A stretch of 16,505 nt of DNA, taken from UHGV virus genome UHGV-0075529; one strand, 5' to 3'. Position 1 is the stretch's first letter, and each line of letters begins with the position of its first letter. The position numbers were made by a program, and so were the translations under genes. The notes under the pieces were generated by a model, which was not told the DNA's origin, searched no databases, and was given only the letters and a program-made list of their open reading frames with translations. This DNA is from a virus. This document shows positions 4,140-16,455 of the stretch, piece by piece.

Positions 4140-4363
4140 GACTCCACTCCGTAGCGCCCATTCAGGCGACCAATTTCGCTGTTAAATTTGATAAGGCTGA
4201 TGCCTAGAGGCTCGACGATTTGGTGATATTTTCGGAGGATAGGCGGGACGACTTTATTCCAGTTCGGCTTGGGCTTTGTGCGCATCGCCGCTTTCAGTTC
4301 GTCACTGCATCGCCGGGCCTGAGAGTGCAAAGCATTCTCCTGTTCGGTGGTCATTCGCTTCAT
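4136..4363 (-). CDS. Hypothetical phage protein, 75 aa
   Basis: ORF with ATGA overlaps at both ends (Dam stop and 203-aa start). Confidence 0.55.
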   Translation of the reverse strand: MKRMTTEQENALHSQARRCSDELKAAMRTKPKPNWNKVVPPILRKYHQIVEPLGISLIKFNSEIGRLNGRYGVES

Positions 4364-4911
4364 GCTGCCTCCCGCCGGGCGATAAGTTTCGCTCCGAAAG
4401 TCATTAATACGTCGCGCTCCACGAAATTGGACTCGCAGTGTGTCCGAGGGAATGGCCGCCAGATGAGCAACATACTCCCTTTATTATTTCCCGATACCGG
4501 CTTACCGGTGACCGGGTTGATGAATTCCAGCCGCCCGGCAGTGATGAATCGAACCTCGCTCGCCGTCTCGATAGCCTCACGGAACCAGCCGACGGAAGTA
4601 TCAGCCGGAACCAGCATGACGGTGCCGATCTGATTCTTGCTCTCCGCTGCGGCTTTCTTCACGAATGGCGTGATGTCGCTGTAAGGTGGGTTGAGCCACG
4701 CATAGCCTGGAATGGTGAGGTAATCGGCCCACGGAGTTTCCAGCGTATTCTGCTCTGCGGTGATGAACTTGCGGCAGAGCGCGTTATGCGGCGCTGCTGC
4801 GGCGTCCAGTTGAAAGCAGAACTCTGCATCCAGCGCGGCAAATAGAGCCGGTGGTGTGCGCCATAAATCACGCTGATCTGCTGGCGTGTTACTTCCGGTG
4901 TAATCGGTCAT
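4360..4911 (-). CDS. dam: Phage-type DNA N6-adenine methyltransferase (Dam family)
   Basis: 183 aa with the catalytic NPPY motif (AWLNPPYSD) and overall phage Dam architecture. Confidence 0.8.
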   Translation of the reverse strand: MTDYTGSNTPADQRDLWRTPPALFAALDAEFCFQLDAAAAPHNALCRKFITAEQNTLETPWADYLTIPGYAWLNPPYSDITPFVKKAAAESKNQIGTVMLVPADTSVGWFREAIETASEVRFITAGRLEFINPVTGKPVSGNNKGSMLLIWRPFPRTHCESNFVERDVLMTFGAKLIARREAA

Positions 4912-5066
4912 GCCGCCTCCCTCTTATTGTTTAGCTCTTCCGCCAAGCGCTGGGCCTTGAGTGGGTTCTGGATGACCATGCCGCCGGGAACCACCCACCC
5001 GCGGCGTAAGTTCGAATAGACGAGCGTCACCGATCCCACGCTGATGTTGTCGTGTGCATTTTTCAT
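4908..5066 (-). CDS. Small hypothetical protein, 52 aa (not in the ORF track)
   Basis: Hand translation of the minus strand gives [52 protein letters not shown]; ATG overlaps the exo stop and its TGA overlaps the dam ATG; SD GGAGAG 8 nt upstream. The listed 84-aa ORF here is in another frame. Confidence 0.45.
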
Positions 5067-5743
5067 CGCCATTGCTCTCCGAAGGTGAAGCCAATCTCTG
5101 CCAGCGCCTCGTCCATCTTTTCGATGAACTCCGGCACCATCTCGTCGAAGTCGGCCATGTATTTTTCATCCCGCTCAACCACGACGTAATGCAGCCCCTC
5201 GCGCTTCATGCGAGGGTCGTAGTTGGCAAAGAACCAGGCTGGATTTTTGTTTACCCACATGCTGTATTGCACCTGGGCCATGTAGTCCGCTTTGATGGCA
5301 TCGAAGCCGCCGAGCCGGAACTTCATGAAGTCTCGGGAGGTGAACGGGCATTTCAGCTCGAGGCCAAATCCGTTACTGCACAGGCCGTCTGGTGAACAGG
5401 CGGTGCGCATGGTTTCATCGCGAAAGAGGATCGGTGATTCGATGACGCTCACTCCGGTCGTGAACTCAAACAGGGTGCGTGCGTCCTCTTCGTACTGCTT
5501 GCCCCAGGCAAGCGCCTTTGCATTCACCTCCGGCGCTACACCGGTGCATACCTCAGCGAGGAGGGTGTGGAAGTAGGACATCTTCATGCAAGTCCATTTG
5601 GTGCCGCTGCGCGGTTTTGAAATGACGTTATGAACCTCAGATGCGGTGATAACACCGAGGCGAAGTCGATGCCACTCCTCATCACCCTGTTCGATTCTGG
5701 TCACATCAATGCCGGTTCGCGCCAGGATGATTTCTGGTGTCAT
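5063..5743 (-). CDS. exo: Lambda-type 5'-3' exonuclease (Red-alpha / YqaJ family)
   Basis: 226 aa, near-collinear with lambda Exo as recalled ([14 protein letters not shown]..., [32 protein letters not shown]-terminal FGEQWR). Confidence 0.9.
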
Positions 5744-6669
5744 GCGGCAGCCCTCTGCTTGAGGAAACCAAGAGCCTTGACGGCCTCTATCTCAGTGAGA
5801 TCGCCAGACTCCAGAATGTCGCGCTTGAAGATACGGCGGCACAGAGGGAGAAGGTCCTCATCCCATGTTTTGTTCATGGCGATCAGGAGGTCGTTTATCT
5901 CTTTCAGCGTGTCGAGGCTGGCCGGGGTAATATCGCGCTCTGGCTGGCGCTCTGCAGCAAAGTTGATACCCTCCTCGCCCTCAGTGTTGACGTGGTCGAT
6001 AGCGGCATCCAGACGTTCGCGTCGCGGCCAGTATTTGGTTGCCTGCTTCACGACTGTCTTGAGGATCATCTGCTCTTCGTCCGTCACCCATGGACACTTC
6101 TTGCTGCTGTCCTGCTTGTACTTCTTCCAGGCTTCCGAACGGTCACGGATCGCGAAGATATCCGCTATGCGCATGGTATGGGTGAGATAGTCGCCGTCGT
6201 CAGTTTTAACCACGACATACGCCCCAACAATCTCACCGCGCTGCTCTGCGGTGTCGAAGTCGTTGTAGATGTGAATGGGTGGCTTATCTAGCCCCTCACG
6301 GCGGAACTGGTCGTTCTTCCGCACGATTGCAGACTGGCACCACTTAATTGCACCAGATTGCTGGGCGATGTGCATCAACCCCATGTAGCTAATATCGAGG
6401 CAGATAGCACCTTTTCGCGGCACAAGATAAGCAAGTTTCTGCGCCGGGTTCAGCGATATCCCGATTCCTGAAATATTCATCAGGGCGCTACGGGTGCTAG
6501 TCGGGTTGGAGAGAGCGATTTTCGCCAGGTAGTCATTGTTGGCGAAGATCTGCATGGCGAACTCAGATTCGCGCTTGAATTGAATGGACGGTTCGGCGCA
6601 AACCTGCTCGAACTCCGCCTTGAGTGGGTTAATCAGGTTGAATACCTGATCTGTAAGCAGGCCAGCCAT
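5740..6669 (-). CDS. recT: RecT-family single-strand annealing protein
   Basis: 309 aa directly upstream of exo with ATGA coupling; sequence pattern consistent with the RecT family; SD AGGAGGA upstream. Confidence 0.75.
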
Positions 6670-9510: not shown

Positions 9511-10188
9511 TTATGGGATGTTTAGTATTTTGGCATCAACCACAACGCCGATGATTTTGCAGTTTCCATTAATTTCTAGCATTGGATATGCGGGGTTAAG
9601 GGGCTTTAGGAAGCGTCTGCCGGCATCGATTACAAGCTTCTTAAAGGTCGCTTCGTTATCGCCTTCTAGCTTCGCGACAACCAGCTTTCCGTTGCGCGGC
9701 TCGACTTCAGGATCAACAAGTATCGCTGCTCCCTCGGGTATGCTCAGTCCAGCCGGGGAGGTCATAGAATCCCCTTTAACGTCCAGCCAGAATGAATCTT
9801 CTGAGCAGTCAACAGTCGTGTCATACCAGCGATCTATCGCTCTTCGGTGATAAGGTTCTACAGCTTCCATCCATTGCCCCGCGCTTACCCAGCTGATTAC
9901 AGGATAACTTCCTTTTGTCTCGTTCAGTCCTCGAAATGCAACGTTCGAAGGTTCTTCACTGGCGTGTAAAACATCCATCCAGCCAAAAGGCAGATCAAGC
10001 GCAGTTTCAATTTTGCGAGCCATCTTATCGCCGATATTGCGATGAGGGTTTGGTCCCAGTAGCTGGCTAAGCGCAGCCGGACTTGTCTCGATGAGCTCGG
10101 CAAACTGCGCTTTGGTCATTCCAGACTCGTGCTGACGCTTCTCGTACAGCGCTTCCAGGTTGGCTTTTCTGATTTCTTTATTTTCCAT
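9511..10188 (-). CDS. cI: cI-type prophage repressor (N-terminal HTH, C-terminal S24 LexA-like autopeptidase)
   Basis: Start taken at ATG 10188 (MENKEIRKANLEA...); C-terminal domain has the catalytic Ser in GDSM, a downstream Lys, and an Ala-Gly candidate cleavage site (SWVSAGQW). The ORF track runs to 10305 across the operators. Confidence 0.88.
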   Translation of the reverse strand: MENKEIRKANLEALYEKRQHESGMTKAQFAELIETSPAALSQLLGPNPHRNIGDKMARKIETALDLPFGWMDVLHASEEPSNVAFRGLNETKGSYPVISWVSAGQWMEAVEPYHRRAIDRWYDTTVDCSEDSFWLDVKGDSMTSPAGLSIPEGAAILVDPEVEPRNGKLVVAKLEGDNEATFKKLVIDAGRRFLKPLNPAYPMLEINGNCKIIGVVVDAKILNIP

Positions 10189-10304
10189 ACCTGCATTGTT
10201 ACTGCTTTTAGCAAAATGATAAATATGCAAATTGCTAAATGATGCTTGCGTAGTATTTAGCATAACGCTAAACTCCAAATCAAACGACTCACCCGGAGAC
10301 ACCA
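10189..10304. promoter_or_regulatory. OR operator triplet with divergent PRM/PR promoters
   Basis: 17-bp sites at 10207-10223 (TTTAGC-AAAAT-GATAAA), 10223-10239 (weak) and 10256-10272 (perfect TTTAGC-ATAAC-GCTAAA); PR candidate -35 TTGCGT (10246-10251), 17-bp spacer, -10 TAAACT (10269-10274). Confidence 0.7.
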
Positions 10305-10538
10305 ATGAGCACTGAACTACACCGCTGGCGCAAGGCCGCCACTACCGACGAATGGGCGCAGCTCGCAAAGTTGGCTAACACGACGCCAGGTTACCTGGAC
10401 CAGATCGCCTACGGAAATCGCCGGGCATCTCCAGAAATGGCATCTGCTATCGAGAAAGGCACGAAGAATTTTCACCGCCAGGCTCCGGTCCTAAAAGAAA
10501 GCCTGGTATTCGCATCGCCGCGTGATACTGCGGCCTAA
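10305..10538 (+). CDS. cro: Cro-like / YdaS-family HTH DNA-binding protein
   Basis: 77-aa ORF divergent from cI across the operator region; SD GGAGA 7 nt upstream; HTH-like segment EWAQLAKLANTTPGYLDQIAYGNR. Confidence 0.65.
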   Translation: MSTELHRWRKAATTDEWAQLAKLANTTPGYLDQIAYGNRRASPEMASAIEKGTKNFHRQAPVLKESLVFASPRDTAA

Positions 10539-11211: not shown

Positions 11212-11358
11212 ATGGCAAAAAATCCACGCTATTACCATACCGCTGTACATAAAAACATAACCCGCGACCGCTTCATCCGCTCGGTTAACCCGATTGTGGC
11301 AGAGAAGATGCGCGCCATCCTGGAAGAACTGAAACGTAAGGAGAGTGGCCGTGGGTAA
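11212..11358 (+). CDS. Small hypothetical protein, 48 aa (or 78 aa from ATG 11122)
   Basis: Strong SD AGGAGG 5-6 nt upstream of ATG 11212 (MAKNPRYYHTAVHKNITRDRF...); the ORF track extends to 11119 overlapping the upstream stop. Confidence 0.45.
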   Translation: MAKNPRYYHTAVHKNITRDRFIRSVNPIVAEKMRAILEELKRKESGRG

Positions 11359-12250
11359 CGTATCCAATTTAGCCGAAGCCAGAGAGGCCAGAAGGCTCCA
11401 GAAACCGCGCACGAATGACGGTAAGGGGTTTGCCTTGCTGCACCGTAAAATTATGGATGTGCCGTTCTACAAGGACGCTGAGGCGGCTCATTTATGGGTT
11501 CACCTGCTCCTGCGCGCTAATCATGAACAGACACTGGTATCGACTGATGTCGGCGATGTGATCTGCGAGCGCGGAGAGTTCATTACCGGGCGAAACACGC
11601 TGGCAATGGAAACGGGTTTGACCGCTGATCGCGTTAAATCACTGCTCCGTAAATTCCAGAACCTGGGCATGATCACCACCAAATCGAACAACCGTTTTAC
11701 TGTTCTAAAAGTGGTCAAATATGACGAATATCAGTCAAATTTTTGTCCAGCCGATGTCCAGCCAGTGTCCAGCGCAAACGCAGCTATATCAATGCCTGCG
11801 GAGGCGGAGTGTCCAGCCGATGTCCAGCCAGTGTCCACAGATAACAATATATTAAATAACTTACTACCTAACGGTAGTAAGTATGTCGCAAATGACCAGA
11901 AACCCGCTGAAGAGAAAAAGTCCCGTTTGTCATGCGATGAAGTATGGCAATGCCTGAAAGACGAACTGCCTGAAGCCCGGGGATGGAGATGCCTCACTGA
12001 TGAGCGACGCAATCTGATCCGCACCTTCTGGGGTAAGGCTAACAAAATTGCCCGCAACCTGGACGGCAAGCCGATGGATATGGACGGTTTCAGAAGCTAT
12101 CTGCGCTACATCGCTCAGAACTGCCGCTGGATGCTTGAAGACCGACCAGACCAGAAATCCGGGAAGACCTGGCGCCGCATGAAATTCGATAAGTTCCTGA
12201 CCGAAAAGCTCTACATCGAAGTGCGCGAAGGGGATCGTGATGACCGCTGA
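11345..12250 (+). CDS. Replication initiator / replisome organiser (O-like) with the origin inside the gene
   Basis: 301 aa with N-terminal DNA-binding-like region, a central linker encoded by the iterons (CPADVQPVS twice), and a conserved phage C-terminal domain; sits directly upstream of the helicase. Confidence 0.7.
   Translation: MAVGNVSNLAEAREARRLQKPRTNDGKGFALLHRKIMDVPFYKDAEAAHLWVHLLLRANHEQTLVSTDVGDVICERGEFITGRNTLAMETGLTADRVKSLLRKFQNLGMITTKSNNRFTVLKVVKYDEYQSNFCPADVQPVSSANAAISMPAEAECPADVQPVSTDNNILNNLLPNGSKYVANDQKPAEEKKSRLSCDEVWQCLKDELPEARGWRCLTDERRNLIRTFWGKANKIARNLDGKPMDMDGFRSYLRYIAQNCRWMLEDRPDQKSGKTWRRMKFDKFLTEKLYIEVREGDRDDR
11744..11882. repeat. Candidate replication origin: six phased iterons, AT-rich tract and a 24-bp palindrome
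   Basis: TGTCCAGCC-type 9-mers at 11744, 11755, 11766, 11810, 11821 and 11832 (11-bp spacing; 28-bp perfect direct repeat 11744-11771 = 11810-11837); AT-rich ATAACAATATATTAAATAAC; palindrome ACTTACTACC-TAAC-GGTAGTAAGT (11859-11882). Confidence 0.6.
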
Positions 12251-13673
12251 TTTCATGGCTGTACCACAAAACCTCGAAGCAGAGCAGAGCGTTATCGGTG
12301 GCCTGCTGCTGGATGATGACAACAGCGAGCGAGTCCAGAAGGTTCTGGCGATGCTCAAGCCTGAGTCGTTCTACAGCCGACCTCACCAGCTGATCTTTGC
12401 CGAGATGCGCCAGATGTTCCGCGACAACAAGCCAGTCGATGGTCTGACATTGTTCGACGCGCTCGAAGGCAAAGGGCTCGCTGAGCAGGTGGGTGGCTTT
12501 GCTTACCTTGCGGAGATCGCCAAGAACACTCCCAGCGCTGCAAACATCGTAGCTTACGCAGCATCAGTCCGGGAAGCCGCAATGGAGCGCTACGGTATCA
12601 ACCGCCTGACCGAAGCTACTGAGCTGCTGTATTCCCGTAACGGCATGAGCGCTACGCAGAAGTACGAGGCCATTCAGGGTATTTTCACCCAGCTCGCAGA
12701 CCATTCAAAAACCGGTAGTCGCCGTGGGTTGCGGTCGTTCGGCGAGGTTATGGATGACTGGGTAGCAGATCTGGAGAAACGCTTTGACCCTTCAGGCGAA
12801 CAGCGCGGCATGAGCACCGGCATCCCGTCACTCGACCGGCTGCTGGCGCCGAAAGGTCTGGTTAAAGGCTCTCTGTTCGTGATTGGCGCAAGGCCAAAGA
12901 TGGGCAAGACAACCCTGTACGGTCAGATGGCGATCAACTGCGCGGTTCGTGAGAAAAAGCCAGCGCTGATGTTCAGCCTCGAAATGCCGGGCGACCAGAT
13001 CCTCGAAAAACTGGTTGGTCAGAAGTCTGGAGTTAACCCGAGCATTTTTTACATGCCAGCCACGGATGACGCCGATGACCAGTACCAGGGCGATTACGAC
13101 GGCGACTTTAAGAAGGCGATCGCCACCGCCGGGCGATTGAGTGAAATCGACATGCTGTACATCGACGATACTCCTGGCCTGTCACTGGCGCACATCGTTA
13201 GCGAAAGCCGCCGAATCAAGCGCGAGAAGGGCTGCGTAGGAATGATTTTGGTTGACTACCTGACTCTGATGACCGCCGAAAAAGCCGACCGTAATGACCT
13301 TGCCTACGGGATGATCACCAAAGGGTTGAAGAACCTCGCTAAAGAGCTTGGCTGCGTCGTCGTGCTGCTGACCCAGCTCAACCGCGAACTGGAGAAGCGA
13401 GTGAATAAACGCCCGTTACCGAGCGATTCCCGCGACACAGGACAGATTGAGCAGGACTGCGACTACTGGGTTGGTATCCACCGGGAAGGTGCTTTCGATG
13501 ATAGCGTGCCGCCGGGAGAAACCGAGTTAATCCTGCGACTCAATCGCCACGGCAGTACCGGAACGGTTTATTGCAATCAGATCAACGGGGCAATTTACGA
13601 CACAGACCAGCAGGCCGCCGCCGCAGAACGACGCGGGCGTGAGCAGCAGCCGAAAAAGAAAGGGGGATTCTGA
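12240..13673 (+). CDS. Replicative DNA helicase, DnaB family (phage-encoded)
   Basis: DnaB N-terminal signature AVPQNLEAEQSVIGGLLLD...FYSRPHQLIF...GGFAYLAEIAKNTPSAANI and Walker A GARPKMGKTT; ATG at 12240 with SD AAGGGGA. Confidence 0.9.
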   Translation: MTADFMAVPQNLEAEQSVIGGLLLDDDNSERVQKVLAMLKPESFYSRPHQLIFAEMRQMFRDNKPVDGLTLFDALEGKGLAEQVGGFAYLAEIAKNTPSAANIVAYAASVREAAMERYGINRLTEATELLYSRNGMSATQKYEAIQGIFTQLADHSKTGSRRGLRSFGEVMDDWVADLEKRFDPSGEQRGMSTGIPSLDRLLAPKGLVKGSLFVIGARPKMGKTTLYGQMAINCAVREKKPALMFSLEMPGDQILEKLVGQKSGVNPSIFYMPATDDADDQYQGDYDGDFKKAIATAGRLSEIDMLYIDDTPGLSLAHIVSESRRIKREKGCVGMILVDYLTLMTAEKADRNDLAYGMITKGLKNLAKELGCVVVLLTQLNRELEKRVNKRPLPSDSRDTGQIEQDCDYWVGIHREGAFDDSVPPGETELILRLNRHGSTGTVYCNQINGAIYDTDQQAAAAERRGREQQPKKKGGF

Positions 13674-14017
13674 TGACCATAACAATCCGCGGGCAGATTC
13701 TTGCAGCCCTGCGTAACAACCCGGGCCTGAACAGTGCTCGTATTGCCAGCATGATCGGCATGACCACCAAAAAGATTTCCGGCCCGTTAAGTACGTTGTT
13801 TGCAGACGGCCTGATCGAGTTCGAAGGCAAGCACGGACAGCGGCTTTATCGGCTGACCGATTACGGCATGAAATACGCACCAGAAACAATCCCGGCTATG
13901 CCGAAGGGAAATTCGAAGCTGGTGCAGCGTACAGAGGCAAACGTGATCTGCCAGGAGTGCCGCAACAGCGCGGCGATGAGAAGGGTATTGATGGTTTGGG
14001 GGAGGGTAGGGGTATGA
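13673..14017 (+). CDS. Putative winged-helix DNA-binding protein, 114 aa
   Basis: ORF whose ATG overlaps the helicase stop (TGATG); N-terminal region has an HTH-like pattern (ILAALRNNPGLNSARIASMIGMTTKKISGPLSTL). Confidence 0.55.
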   Translation: MTITIRGQILAALRNNPGLNSARIASMIGMTTKKISGPLSTLFADGLIEFEGKHGQRLYRLTDYGMKYAPETIPAMPKGNSKLVQRTEANVICQECRNSAAMRRVLMVWGRVGV

Positions 14018-14211
14018 AAATCGAAGATATCAAAAACGTTGCGGTGTTCTTCAATATGAACGGCAAGACAGTAGCGTTACGAATGGATGCTGAGCAGAAG
14101 CGGATCGTCGCATTAATGGCGCTTAACACGGCTGATGCTCGGGCAGAACTGATTGAAGTGCCGCACATGACTTTACCAGCAGACCCAGCCATGGAGGAGG
14201 CCGCCCAATGA
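14014..14211 (+). CDS. Hypothetical phage protein, 65 aa
   Basis: ATG 14014 overlaps the upstream stop (ATGA) and follows SD GGAGGG; the ORF track starts at 13957. Confidence 0.5.
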   Translation: MKIEDIKNVAVFFNMNGKTVALRMDAEQKRIVALMALNTADARAELIEVPHMTLPADPAMEEAAQ

Positions 14212-14597
14212 GCAACATCGACAAACGTGGATTACGTGAAGCAGCGGAGAAGGCGACGAAATGCCGGTGGGCTGTTGAGTTCGACGATGAGATTTACTCC
14301 ACTGACGGCGTGAACCATGAGCAAATAGCCATGGTATTCAGTGAAAACGAAGCGCGTGATGCTGCATTTATCGCCGCAGCCAACCCCGCCACCGTGCTGG
14401 CGCTGCTGGATGAGCTGGAAGCCGCAGAGAAGCGAATCGCTGAACTGGAAGCGAAGCTCGATAGCGCAGATAAATTGCAAGATAGCGCATTTCGTCATGG
14501 TCTTCAGCATGGCTTCAGTTTTGGTCAAACGGATAATCAGGCTGGATTTGAAGAGTGCTTATCTGCATATGGAGCGCGGGGTAAAGATAATGGCTAA
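14208..14597 (+). CDS. Ead/Ea22-like family protein
   Basis: 129 aa; N-terminal KRGLREAAEKATK and ATVLALLDELEAAEKRIAELEAKL are typical of Ead/Ea22-like proteins as recalled; ATGA overlap to the upstream gene. Confidence 0.65.
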   Translation: MSNIDKRGLREAAEKATKCRWAVEFDDEIYSTDGVNHEQIAMVFSENEARDAAFIAAANPATVLALLDELEAAEKRIAELEAKLDSADKLQDSAFRHGLQHGFSFGQTDNQAGFEECLSAYGARGKDNG

Positions 14598-14790
14598 TTC
14601 ATTACTTGAAACATGCAATGACTGGCAAATTCTTCGCGCAGAAATATTGGCTCGAAATCCAAATATGGCCATGATACTTCAAAAGCTCGACATCATGATT
14701 GAGCATTCCGTTAGGGCGGCAATTGAAATATCGCATCGTGTTGACTGGGATTTTAGTGAAGCAGAGCGTAAAGCTAAGGCGGTGAATTAA
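14590..14790 (+). CDS. Hypothetical phage protein, 66 aa
   Basis: ATG 14590 overlaps the end of the upstream gene by 8 nt; the ORF track extends to 14341, overlapping the Ead-like gene. Confidence 0.45.
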   Translation: MANSLLETCNDWQILRAEILARNPNMAMILQKLDIMIEHSVRAAIEISHRVDWDFSEAERKAKAVN

Positions 14791-15587
14791 TGGAACTTTC
14801 ACGGGATAAGATTAAAGAAATAATCAATGACGATTGGCTTTTGATGGATGATTGCGAAGGAAATAAAAACTGTGACGTTGTCAAAGAGATGGCGCGTATA
14901 GCGCTGGCATCGCTCGAAGCGGAGCCTGCCATTCACCGGTGGCGTCGTGTGACCTCTGAGCCATACGGCCCCTATCCTTGGCATTATGGTGATTTTATCG
15001 GCTTCTCAAAGCCCGTTGATGGGATTGAGGATGAGTATTTTTACTCCGCCCCGCCAGAGCCAGCCAATGCCGAAACCGTAGCCTGGCTGTGGTCACACAG
15101 GAAACACCCGAGCGAAGTCACGCTTGTTCGCCCTGAAGATGATGAGAGAGCGGAGGGTGCTCACTGGTCTGGCTGGAGTTGTCAGGCGCTTTATGCAGCA
15201 CCGCCAGTTCCGGTATCTGTGCCCACATTCGAGAAATGGTGTGAGTTGACTGAGCAGAAACCTGTCGGATGGGTGCGTGATGCTATGAAAGAAGCGTATG
15301 ACGGATGCCGCGACGCCATGCTTCAGGGTGCCGAAAAAGCCGAGTCGCCCACCACCATGCAGACCGCGCCAGCCCTAGATTCTTCGCCAAAAATTTCCGA
15401 GTCGCCCGTCAGCAACTCTCCGGTGATTCCGGATGGTTGGGTGCTGGTTCCTAAGGAGCCAACTCCAGAAATGCGTGAGGCGTACCATCAGGCGCAGGAA
15501 GAGTGTGAAGATGGCGGTAGATTATGGAGCCCAGACCACCAATGGAAGGCCATGATCGCAGCAGCACCGCAGCAGGAGGCGAAGTGA
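14790..15587 (+). CDS. Hypothetical phage protein, 265 aa, with an internally repeated motif
   Basis: ATG overlaps the upstream stop (TAATG); internal repeat GWVRDAMKEAYDGCRDAM versus GWVLVPKEPTPEMREAYHQAQ; no catalytic motif recognised. Confidence 0.65.
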   Translation: MELSRDKIKEIINDDWLLMDDCEGNKNCDVVKEMARIALASLEAEPAIHRWRRVTSEPYGPYPWHYGDFIGFSKPVDGIEDEYFYSAPPEPANAETVAWLWSHRKHPSEVTLVRPEDDERAEGAHWSGWSCQALYAAPPVPVSVPTFEKWCELTEQKPVGWVRDAMKEAYDGCRDAMLQGAEKAESPTTMQTAPALDSSPKISESPVSNSPVIPDGWVLVPKEPTPEMREAYHQAQEECEDGGRLWSPDHQWKAMIAAAPQQEAK

Positions 15588-15638
15588 TTATGTCGTGACA
15601 GCATAATTGCGATGTCAACGATAAGCAGAGGTTTGAAA

Positions 15639-15833
15639 ATGAAATCACAATCACCAGTGCAGCATGAAGTTAACATCGACGGCAAAGAGTATGTTGTCAC
15701 AGTAGTCCAAACCGGCAAGTCAACGTGGAGGGCATGGGGAGATTCCTGGGGGCGCCATATAGTCGAAACAGGTTCTAGCGAACATAGCGCGCTTTCTCAT
15801 TGGAAAGCAAAAGCTTTAGTTATGAATGGGTAG
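15639..15833 (+). CDS. Hypothetical phage protein, 64 aa
   Basis: ATG 15639 preceded by SD GAGG (the ORF track starts at 15612); followed by the 15857-15882 terminator. Confidence 0.5.
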   Translation: MKSQSPVQHEVNIDGKEYVVTVVQTGKSTWRAWGDSWGRHIVETGSSEHSALSHWKAKALVMNG

Positions 15834-15856
15834 CGCGGAAACTTTGAAGGTATAAT

Positions 15857-15882
15857 CCCCTCAAATAATCGAGGGGGTTTTT
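15857..15882 (+). terminator. Intrinsic terminator (plus strand) whose 3' stem half doubles as the SD of the next gene
   Basis: Stem CCCCTC (15857-15862) / GAGGGG (15871-15876), loop AAATAATC, then TTTTT (15878-15882) abutting ATG 15883. Confidence 0.6.
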
Positions 15883-16455
15883 ATGTCTGGTTGGGATAAC
15901 GGTATAGATGCAGTTTCTGCGATTGCAGCTATCGCATATGGAAACTCCGTCTATGTAGAATTTGACCGCGAAGCACAATCACTTGATGCAGCTATCGCAT
16001 CTGCGGTAGCAACTTATTTAGCATGGCGATCCTCAGAAGCTAGCAGGGCCACATCCGAAAAAGCTTTGCAGTTGCAAGGAAAGCAGTATTTGTACGAGAC
16101 ATTAAAAGCTTGCGCTGAGAGAGCGAATTCATACTCAAAAGGAAAGAAAGGGGCTGACTGGAGCTTTCATGACGCAGCCAATATTGTTCGATGTTTGAAC
16201 ATGGCAATGGGGAGCATAATAAATTACTCAGATACCAACAATCAGGATGCAATGAAAGGTCTGAAGCAATTCTTTATTAGCCAATTAAACATGGAGCTTT
16301 TTGAAGAGCTCAACTATGAGGTTGGGCCTGATGCCTTCTTTCACGGAGAGGAGCTAACCAGCATGACGAGCGATATTTACTCGCAGTGGTTAAACATTAT
16401 TTCATTCTTTAACCTCATGATTGTCACAGATGATGACCTCGCCGATGAAACATAG
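15883..16455 (+). CDS. Hypothetical protein, 190 aa, in a visibly AT-richer segment (candidate moron / accessory gene)
   Basis: Clean ORF starting right after a terminator; lower GC by eye than the replication genes; acidic C-terminus (TDDDLADET); no motif recognised. Confidence 0.65.
   Translation: MSGWDNGIDAVSAIAAIAYGNSVYVEFDREAQSLDAAIASAVATYLAWRSSEASRATSEKALQLQGKQYLYETLKACAERANSYSKGKKGADWSFHDAANIVRCLNMAMGSIINYSDTNNQDAMKGLKQFFISQLNMELFEELNYEVGPDAFFHGEELTSMTSDIYSQWLNIISFFNLMIVTDDDLADET

Follow-up and report, generated by a model that had tools for sequence, protein, structure and literature searches.

A mosaic early gene of an Escherichia coli-type lambdoid prophage as a probable recombinant of a protein family whose cassettes are exchanged at near-invariant intragenic junctions

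In the Susskind-Botstein/Botstein linker model, conserved short sequences flank exchangeable modules (PMC2839356), and short-homology exchange by phage recombinases has been shown experimentally for lambda, phi80 and Rac (PMC2839356; PMC3945230). Rad52-like recombinases (Red-beta, RecT of Rac and phi80, Erf) produce mosaics on short, diverged homology, exchanges of about 100 bp inside genes have been noted with them, and the minimal segment for efficient pairing is 23-27 bp for Red-beta and 31-34 bp for RecA (PMC3945230). The Ea22 genes are mosaic themselves, a common N-terminal part being combined with portable acidic C-terminal domains that include DUF551 (PMC10834534). Here we describe a gene in which such exchange seems to operate within a single coding sequence. 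The stretch of DNA that was analysed, 16,505 nucleotides from UHGV virus genome UHGV-0075529 (hereafter, the window), comes from a lambdoid prophage of the E. coli type, whose early region it represents. At 14790-15587 on the plus strand it contains a complete gene for a 265-amino-acid (aa) protein, present with the same translation as in the original prediction from the letters alone, which is a member of PHROG 60 and the target of this study. We consider it probable that this protein is one recombinant of a large combinatorial family of early proteins, whose cassettes are swapped at near-invariant junctions.

The PHROG 60 profile matched the target with an E-value of 8.1e-21 over residues 6-264, and it also matched 142 of 146 diverse relatives bearing the junctions described below. 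Relatives in this family are annotated as 'Eaa protein', 'ead/Ea22-like' or 'DUF551 domain-containing'; DUF551 is present in 51 of the 146 diverse members, a Lar restriction-alleviation domain in 8 and a dATP/dGTP pyrophosphohydrolase domain in 4. For the target itself, Pfam searched with E-values up to 1 gave no family, the tests for Ead_Ea22 (PF13935) and DUF551 (PF04448) both failing, and neither NCBIfam nor the defence-system models of PADLOC gave a match. A homologue search returned more than 3400 proteins, mainly from Enterobacter, E. coli and Salmonella prophages, whose alignments to the target break recurrently near residues 31-39, 138-147, 180-182 and 215-218. In a multiple alignment (A1), conserved junction peptides stand between mutually unrelated cassettes. 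Across the family these peptides are ARIALASLEAEP at junction J1, LYxAPPxP at J2 and J3 (followed at J2 by (A)EPVAW), RAAMLQGAE at J4, (G)NSPVIPDGW at J5 and, at the stop codon, AAAPQQE(V/A)K at J6. Slot 3 holds at least 15 unrelated cassette types and slot 4 many variants. In the 122 family proteins that bear J5, the element that comes next is a domain with the signature GWxLVPxEPTxEM in 80, DUF551 in 39 and something else in 3; a zinc-ribbon cassette was also seen after J5 in alignment A1. The target carries the J1, J3, J4, J5 and J6 peptides in order and has the consensus nucleotides of the pool nearly throughout, its J1 showing a single synonymous difference (ATA for ATC).

The plus-strand gene can be read from end to end as cassettes and junctions. 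It begins with a helical N-terminal cassette (residues 1-34, 14790-14891), 99.3% identical to HK140 gene 032 and 98.8% to an E. coli prophage (L002), which is followed by J1 (ARIALASLEAEP, 14892-14927) and the unit-1 cassette (residues 47-83, AIHRWRRV...EDEY, 14928-15038), found without unit 2 in other proteins. J2 (FYSAPPEPANAETVAW, 15039-15086), of the same type as J3, leads to the unit-2 cassette (residues 100-132, LWSHRKHPSEV...WSGWSC, 15087-15185), which occurs in many protein contexts at 70-92% identity. Next come J3 (ALYAAPPVPVSVP, 15186-15224), the slot-3 cassette (residues 146-172, TFEKWCELTEQKPVGWVRDAMKEAYDG, 15225-15305), J4 (CRDAMLQGAE, 15306-15335) and a low-complexity linker rich in Ser, Pro and Thr and modelled as disordered (residues 183-207, 15336-15410). 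The gene closes with J5 (SNSPVIPDGW, 15411-15440), the C-terminal domain (residues 214-260, GWxLVPxEPTxEM...AMIAAAP, 15429-15569), which consists of an extended segment and a two-helix hairpin, and J6 together with the gene end (MIAAAPQQEAK and stop, 15552-15587).

When residues 44-146 were searched against 1.84 billion representative proteins, just 190 matches were found, at 53-95% identity: in one set of proteins the match was confined to residues 44-94, in the other to about 83-145. Units 1 and 2 are thus separate cassettes without distant relatives. In P0031 and P0102, J2 is fused straight to J3 and unit 2 is absent; the DNA of J2 and that of J3 are 78% identical over 18 nt. The modularity goes further than the separate occurrence of an N- and a C-terminal half that had been envisaged, since five parts (the N cassette, units 1 and 2, the slot-3 cassette and the C-terminal domain) are each found alone in other proteins. 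As these comparisons show, the target can be described as a chain of at least five independently exchangeable cassettes: the N-terminal helical segment, two units of about 45 residues, the slot-3 helix, the disordered linker and the C-terminal hairpin. Two small irregularities were seen around the linker. An 18-nt direct repeat within it (15340-15357 and 15397-15414; 83% identical, 57 nt apart), which encodes (A/S)ESP(T/V)(T/S), has the look of slippage or duplication on a small scale within the disordered spacer. Further, the 95-aa protein P0121 begins with the +1-frame translation of 15305-15400 (compare a 49-aa open reading frame (ORF) at 15305-15454) and continues in frame with the target's C-terminal domain; it is probably a frameshifted or misassembled copy.

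The original prediction had described the 5' part of the gene and the 66-aa gene before it as visibly richer in A and T than the 3' part, and had placed a mosaic joint inside the gene. Both statements hold. The guanine-cytosine content (GC) is 0.353 at 14790-14891 and 0.413 in the 66-aa gene, against 0.567 at 14928-15587 (Fisher tests of the step, p=7e-5 and 8e-7), and the joint could be mapped to 14894-14926. On its left, 14202-14926 is 98.8% identical to the prophage L002, in which the same N-terminal segment is fused to a protein annotated as DUF551, and phage HK140 matches 14790-14926 only (99.3%). On its right, 14894-15940 is 99.8% identical to another E. coli prophage, L001, whose 268-aa protein has exactly the sequence of the target from residue 36 on. 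The two tracts overlap at 14894-14926, an interval of J1 common to both parental types, and the GC step coincides with this overlap. The crossover lies in the shared 33 nt, which encode RIALASLEAE. No single place in 5426 complete E. coli genomes covers 80% or more of 14200-16000, and the exact target protein is on record once, on one 95-kb contig; in its 190-member cluster, at least four of the 268-aa variants are found on 33-103 contigs each. Given the parental identities, the lack of a match in any single genome and the single record, the target is the product of a recent crossover. These comparisons show how the gene was assembled: the J1 crossover linked an AT-rich block of HK140 type, which comprises the N cassette, the 66-aa gene and the 3' end of an Ead/Ea22-like gene, to what is, in E. 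coli prophages, the body of a common protein of 268 aa.

Some further observations concern the block itself. The Ead/Ea22-like gene (14208-14597) is mosaic too, with a GC of 0.547 in its 5' part and 0.456 in its 3' part, which places the start of the AT-rich block inside this gene. The last 50-odd residues of its product are those of the EaD-like protein of HK140, whose N-terminal part differs and bears J1. In HK140 (L231, 1994-3340), the same three genes, for the EaD-like protein, the 66-aa protein and the cassette protein, lie in a leftward early operon near xis and int. As the block is leftward there and rightward after the replication genes here, it moves between operons.

A chimera that is on record once, of which two thirds are modelled at a predicted local distance difference test score (pLDDT) below 50 and which matches no curated family of known function, might be nothing but a by-product of recombination, a functionless ORF heading for decay. 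We regard this as highly improbable. The reading frame runs uninterrupted across six junctions, start and upstream stop overlap as they do in densely packed phage operons, the protein sequence of the body agrees at 100% with that of a variant found on more than 100 contigs, and every cassette recurs in frame in many other proteins.

We then compared the junctions with the cassettes at the DNA level. With blastn-short, the target gene was searched against 19 loci, 17 of them non-parental, and a high-scoring segment pair of any kind was obtained in 15 of these 17 (L003-L014, L017, L019), which come from Enterobacter, Citrobacter, Trabulsiella, Pseudescherichia and Pseudocitrobacter. All 15 match at J1, J4, J5 and J6 with 85-100% identity, mostly 94-100%, and only L003-L005 share cassette DNA of unit 1 or unit 2 as well (87-92%). 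Exact copies of a 24-mer from J1 (GCGCTGGCATCGCTCGAAGCGGAG) and of one from J5 (TCTCCGGTGATTCCGGATGGTTGG) are present in at least 120 IMG/VR contigs each. Column conservation drops to background within 6-18 nt around J1 and on the upstream side of J5; downstream of J5 the decay extends over about 60 nt because most contexts have the same domain type there. When the 60-nt flanks were clustered at 80% identity, J1 was found between 36 upstream and 53 downstream flank types, in 104 combinations among 130 contexts, and J5 between 49 upstream and 44 downstream types, in 91 combinations among 112 contexts. Cassettes reassort freely across a junction, as seen both in these combinations at J1 and J5 and in the separate matching of units 1 and 2.

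Codon usage was scored solely at junction motifs that had not been used in selecting the loci, so as to avoid circularity. At these motifs, one codon accounts for 83-100% of the instances, whereas the same codons make up 12-70% in the background of the same genes: Ser TCG 100% against 12%, Leu CTT 96% against 23% and Ala GCC 98% against 22%. Outside the enterobacterial pool the same peptides are written with other codons, those shared amounting to 1 of 5 and 2 of 8 in an Aeromonas phage and 5 of 12 in an Edwardsiella prophage. The junction peptides are thus under constraint as protein, and the nucleotide identity is a property of the enterobacterial lambdoid gene pool. It could be argued from the first half of this statement that the peptides are kept for protein reasons only, and that random illegitimate recombination, filtered for in-frame survivors (Hendrix-type), generated the mosaics with no role for the junction DNA. 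Persistence of the peptides in other codons outside the pool does make protein-level constraint real, and J5 and J6 coincide with the boundaries of the C-terminal domain. This account leaves unexplained, however, that the junction codons are fixed in more than 100 flank contexts and that the islands of identity are sharp, with lengths near the pairing minimum of Red-beta; nor would illegitimate joins be expected repeatedly within the same 30 nt or so. We therefore think it quite unlikely that the junction DNA plays no part.

Exchange guided by the junctions themselves, the reading that we prefer, requires stretches of identity on which a recombinase can act. Between the target and the other loci, the median length of the islands of exact identity is 26 nt at J1, 20 nt at J4, 32 nt at J5 and 22 nt at J6. 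The prophage encodes a recombination module on the minus strand (5063-6669), consisting of a YqaJ-type exonuclease (5063-5743) and a RecT annealing protein (5740-6669). From this module and from island lengths close to the pairing minimum we infer an annealing-type exchange that preserves the frame. The junctions would offer phage single-strand-annealing recombinases of the RecT/Red-beta type short tracts, some tens of nucleotides in length, over which the partners are exactly identical, and RecT and YqaJ of this prophage would be the machinery that uses them. Recombination there would lead to in-frame exchange of cassettes between co-resident or co-infecting phages and would at the same time keep the junction DNA homogenised, and the junctions may have been selected for this role. 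No Chi sites or other known recombination signals were seen when the junction sequences were inspected by eye. We also considered a system of the shufflon/invertase type and rejected it: the junctions differ from one another, each is present a single time in the window, and none is inverted. The junction motifs of the window are confined to the target gene, the only inverted repeats are two 12-nt pairs with 83% complementarity, and the integrase (742-1932) is the window's sole tyrosine recombinase.

Several points weigh against exchange at the junctions as just described. Most loci of the census were picked by an exact junction 24-mer, and the identity at J1 and J5 is in part there by construction; this bias was offset by scoring only junctions that had not been used for selection and by adding 17 loci found via peptide patterns. 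Fixation of the codons could stem from frequent gene flow rather than from maintenance of the junctions for recombination, and conservation of the junction peptides as protein outside the pool means that protein constraint contributes. The islands at J4 and J6 are slightly shorter than the published minimum for pairing by Red-beta. The adjacency of the N cassette and unit 1 is also found in the Enterobacter proteins P0005 and P0102, so that the J1 event need not be unique and may have taken place outside this lineage. Finally, recombination is deduced here from its putative products in sequence records rather than directly observed.

The original prediction had further proposed that the C-terminal half of the protein repeats a GW...(A/E)M(K/R)EAY motif, that is, that it consists of two tandem copies of one small domain produced by internal duplication. 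Both strings are indeed present, at residues 157-177 (15258-15320, within the slot-3 cassette and beyond it) and 214-242 (15429-15515, within the C-terminal domain); their GW dipeptides are 56 residues apart, and each motif stands at the start of a predicted helix. Comparison of the two halves of the protein by BLASTP gave nothing significant (E 0.29 in a tiny search space). In Smith-Waterman alignments against 2000 shuffles, hand-picked segments reached p=0.0105, but the best alignment was in another register than the one proposed, and the two halves as such gave p=0.11. With hhalign, the slot-3 family and the C-terminal-domain family were aligned in the proposed register (P 0.0099), but with a probability of just 4.2%. 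A hidden Markov model (HMM) of the C-terminal domain, built from 27 diverse domains, scored 100 bits on residues 206-265 and 1.6 bits on residues 144-205, a value reached by 18% of shuffles. Self-BLAST, Smith-Waterman, hhalign and the HMM thus detected no significant sequence or profile self-similarity between the putative copies.

The content of the two regions also differs. Within the C-terminal domain family the start of the helix varies (HEMLEAG, EEMNQAA, EDMIVNG), so REAY is a feature of a subtype and is not conserved in the family as a whole. The GW of the second copy belongs to J5 (SPVIPDGW) and is conserved whichever cassette comes next, DUF551 included. In the AlphaFold models, residues 147-179 are predicted with low confidence as a helix and a further, long one, and residues 214-260 with high confidence as an extended segment followed by a two-helix hairpin. 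Neither the LVPxEPT segment nor the second helix is present in the first region, and a DNA repeat (D1) lies out of frame between the two copies. Consequently, although the strings, the p-value of about 0.01 for selected segments and the register found by hhalign speak for it, a tandem duplication is very unlikely, and the self-alignment that had been suggested as a check lends it no more than marginal or chance-level values. The motif pair is best taken as a chance-level resemblance of the slot-3 helix to the start of the C-terminal domain. A second candidate repeat, residues 43-93 against 93-144, was also rejected, the part in common being only the YxAPPxP junction (p 0.06). The sole genuine internal repeat is that of the two same-type junctions, (F/L)Y(S/A)APPxP at J2 and J3, which lie 150 nt apart and bound two unrelated units of about 45 residues.

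What the protein does was approached through its structure and its relatives. The full-length AlphaFold model has a mean pLDDT of 49 and was used for the N-terminal helices and the C-terminal domain alone; a model of the C-terminal domain reached a pLDDT of 83. Foldseek found this domain, with probabilities of 0.99-1.00, in uncharacterised proteins of Aeromonas, Ralstonia, Burkholderia and Xanthomonas phages, and sequence searches of the PDB with the whole protein and with the domain profile gave chance matches only. A homologue search with a 61-residue C-terminal peptide gave 16 matches, and a profile search performed better. In three short proteins (P0155, P0164 and P0223), a Lar-like zinc module is joined via J4-J5 directly onto a hairpin domain of the target's type. 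Going by such fusions, the C-terminal hairpin domain may be a common partner of anti-restriction modules, and an anti-restriction role for the target would be conjecture. The target is acidic (isoelectric point (pI) 4.68, net charge about -21), as are its PHROG 60 relatives (median pI 4.59), which echoes the acidic portable C-terminal domains of Ea22 (PMC10834534).

The Lar fusions in relatives, the acidity and the position in an early operon hint at an accessory role directed at the host or at its defences. It is possible, and we hold it only tentatively, that the target is an early accessory protein whose point of action is a host or defence function, and that binding is the task of its hairpin domain. 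A scaffold would then be provided by the junctions together with the helical N-terminal part, and the swappable modules, here the GWxLVPxEPTxEM hairpin, would be the binding or effector parts. It has been argued in a recent preprint that recombination-linked early loci of this sort serve as reservoirs of fast-evolving anti-immunity proteins (10.64898/2026.07.10.737580). A bolder suggestion, speculative and to our minds improbable, is that the junctions are a maintained in-frame linker code, which would make PHROG 60 a combinatorial library at the level of the population, built on a common acidic scaffold and containing Lar anti-restriction, DUF551, pyrophosphohydrolase and GWxLVPxEPTxEM hairpin modules. 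If this were true, recombination of the RecT/Red-beta type would enable prophages to renew, at high frequency, the set of modules with which they counter defences or modulate the host.

The genes around the target are those of a compact early region. One base is common to the target's ATG and the TAA of the 66-aa gene upstream of it (14590-14790, plus strand; phrog_10585), which is near-identical to HK140_033 and part of the same AT-rich block as the N cassette; this overlap suggests translational coupling. There is also an overlap between the 66-aa gene and the end of the Ead/Ea22-like gene (plus strand; PF13935, 75 bits for a gathering score of 27), which lies two genes upstream of the target, and the genes are co-oriented as in a tightly packed phage operon. 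The target is placed in the rightward operon, 3' of the replication genes with the DnaB helicase (11345-13673) and a Ren-like winged-helix protein (13673-14017). An 84-aa ORF (13957-14211, plus strand) overlaps the Ren-like gene by 61 nt; its match to phrog_12311 begins at residue 20, and its true start is therefore probably the ATG at 14014, which overlaps the upstream stop. The S24 repressor is encoded on the minus strand (9511-10305), as is a leftward operon (4360-6669) in which a Dam-type N6-adenine methyltransferase of phage adjoins the YqaJ exonuclease/RecT pair. Downstream of the target, a terminator-like hairpin (15854-15879, plus strand; 9-bp stem with 5 G-C pairs and a T-rich tail) lies between a 73-aa ORF (15612-15833) and a 190-aa gene, and may mark an operon or moron boundary. 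The 190-aa gene (15883-16455, plus strand) is AT-rich (GC 0.43) and matches phrog_1779, and its residues 16-43 fit a helix-turn-helix profile of the excisionase/regulator type. Positions 15933-16000 are 100% identical to genes for HTH/AlpA-family regulators on many E. coli plasmids of 95-155 kb, and because the similarity to L001 stops at 15940, there is a further mosaic joint inside this gene.

The kind of feature seen in the target gene is ordinary: it is the known mosaicism of phages, in a clean case that is unusually well resolved. Its value lies in linker-guided exchange that is clean and quantifiable: six junctions within 800 nt, near-fixed codons, islands of identity near the pairing minimum, more than 100 observed flank combinations and, in the window, a recent crossover that can be dated. 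The linker and the illegitimate-recombination models can thus be tested directly on one small gene, which makes it a good model locus for measuring linker-guided recombination. The analysis also flags the very large PHROG 60 and a widespread unnamed C-terminal domain for functional study. No searchable paper contains the junction peptides, and for an explicit account of intragenic linkers in PHROG 60 the literature yielded only general work on mosaicism. The linker structure of this family appears not to have been explicitly described before, although the general phenomenon is well known.

Compared with the linker model, the target has its linkers inside one coding sequence, where they are read as peptide, with six of them in 800 nt, and the units swapped are protein domains or sub-domains, not genes. 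Ea22/Ead (PF13935) is, like the target, an early-operon accessory gene of lambdoid phages, and the EaD-like protein of HK140 has J1 as the target does. In contrast to Ea22, the target has no long coiled coil, and its place is 3' of the replication genes in the rightward operon instead of the interval between exo and xis; a pro-lysogenic role is described for Ea22. In DUF551 (PF04448) prophage proteins such as YfdS of CPS-53, DUF551 occupies the slot of the target's C-terminal domain between the same J5 and J6 flanks, whereas the target has the unrelated GWxLVPxEPTxEM helical hairpin at that slot. Among the names given in databases to relatives of the C-terminal domain is 'eaa protein', as in P22-type EaA/Eaa, and tblastn matches include EaA of phages mEp390 and PT1. 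The name EaA denotes a map position, not a function, and the likeness is piecewise, the N cassette resembling one EaA protein and the C-terminal domain another. A Lar-like zinc module (RalR, PF14354) is present in 8 of 146 relatives, joined via J4-J5 to the target's type of C-terminal domain; the target itself is without it. In its construction, the target works like the mosaic Ea22, EaA and DUF551 accessory proteins and is related to them.

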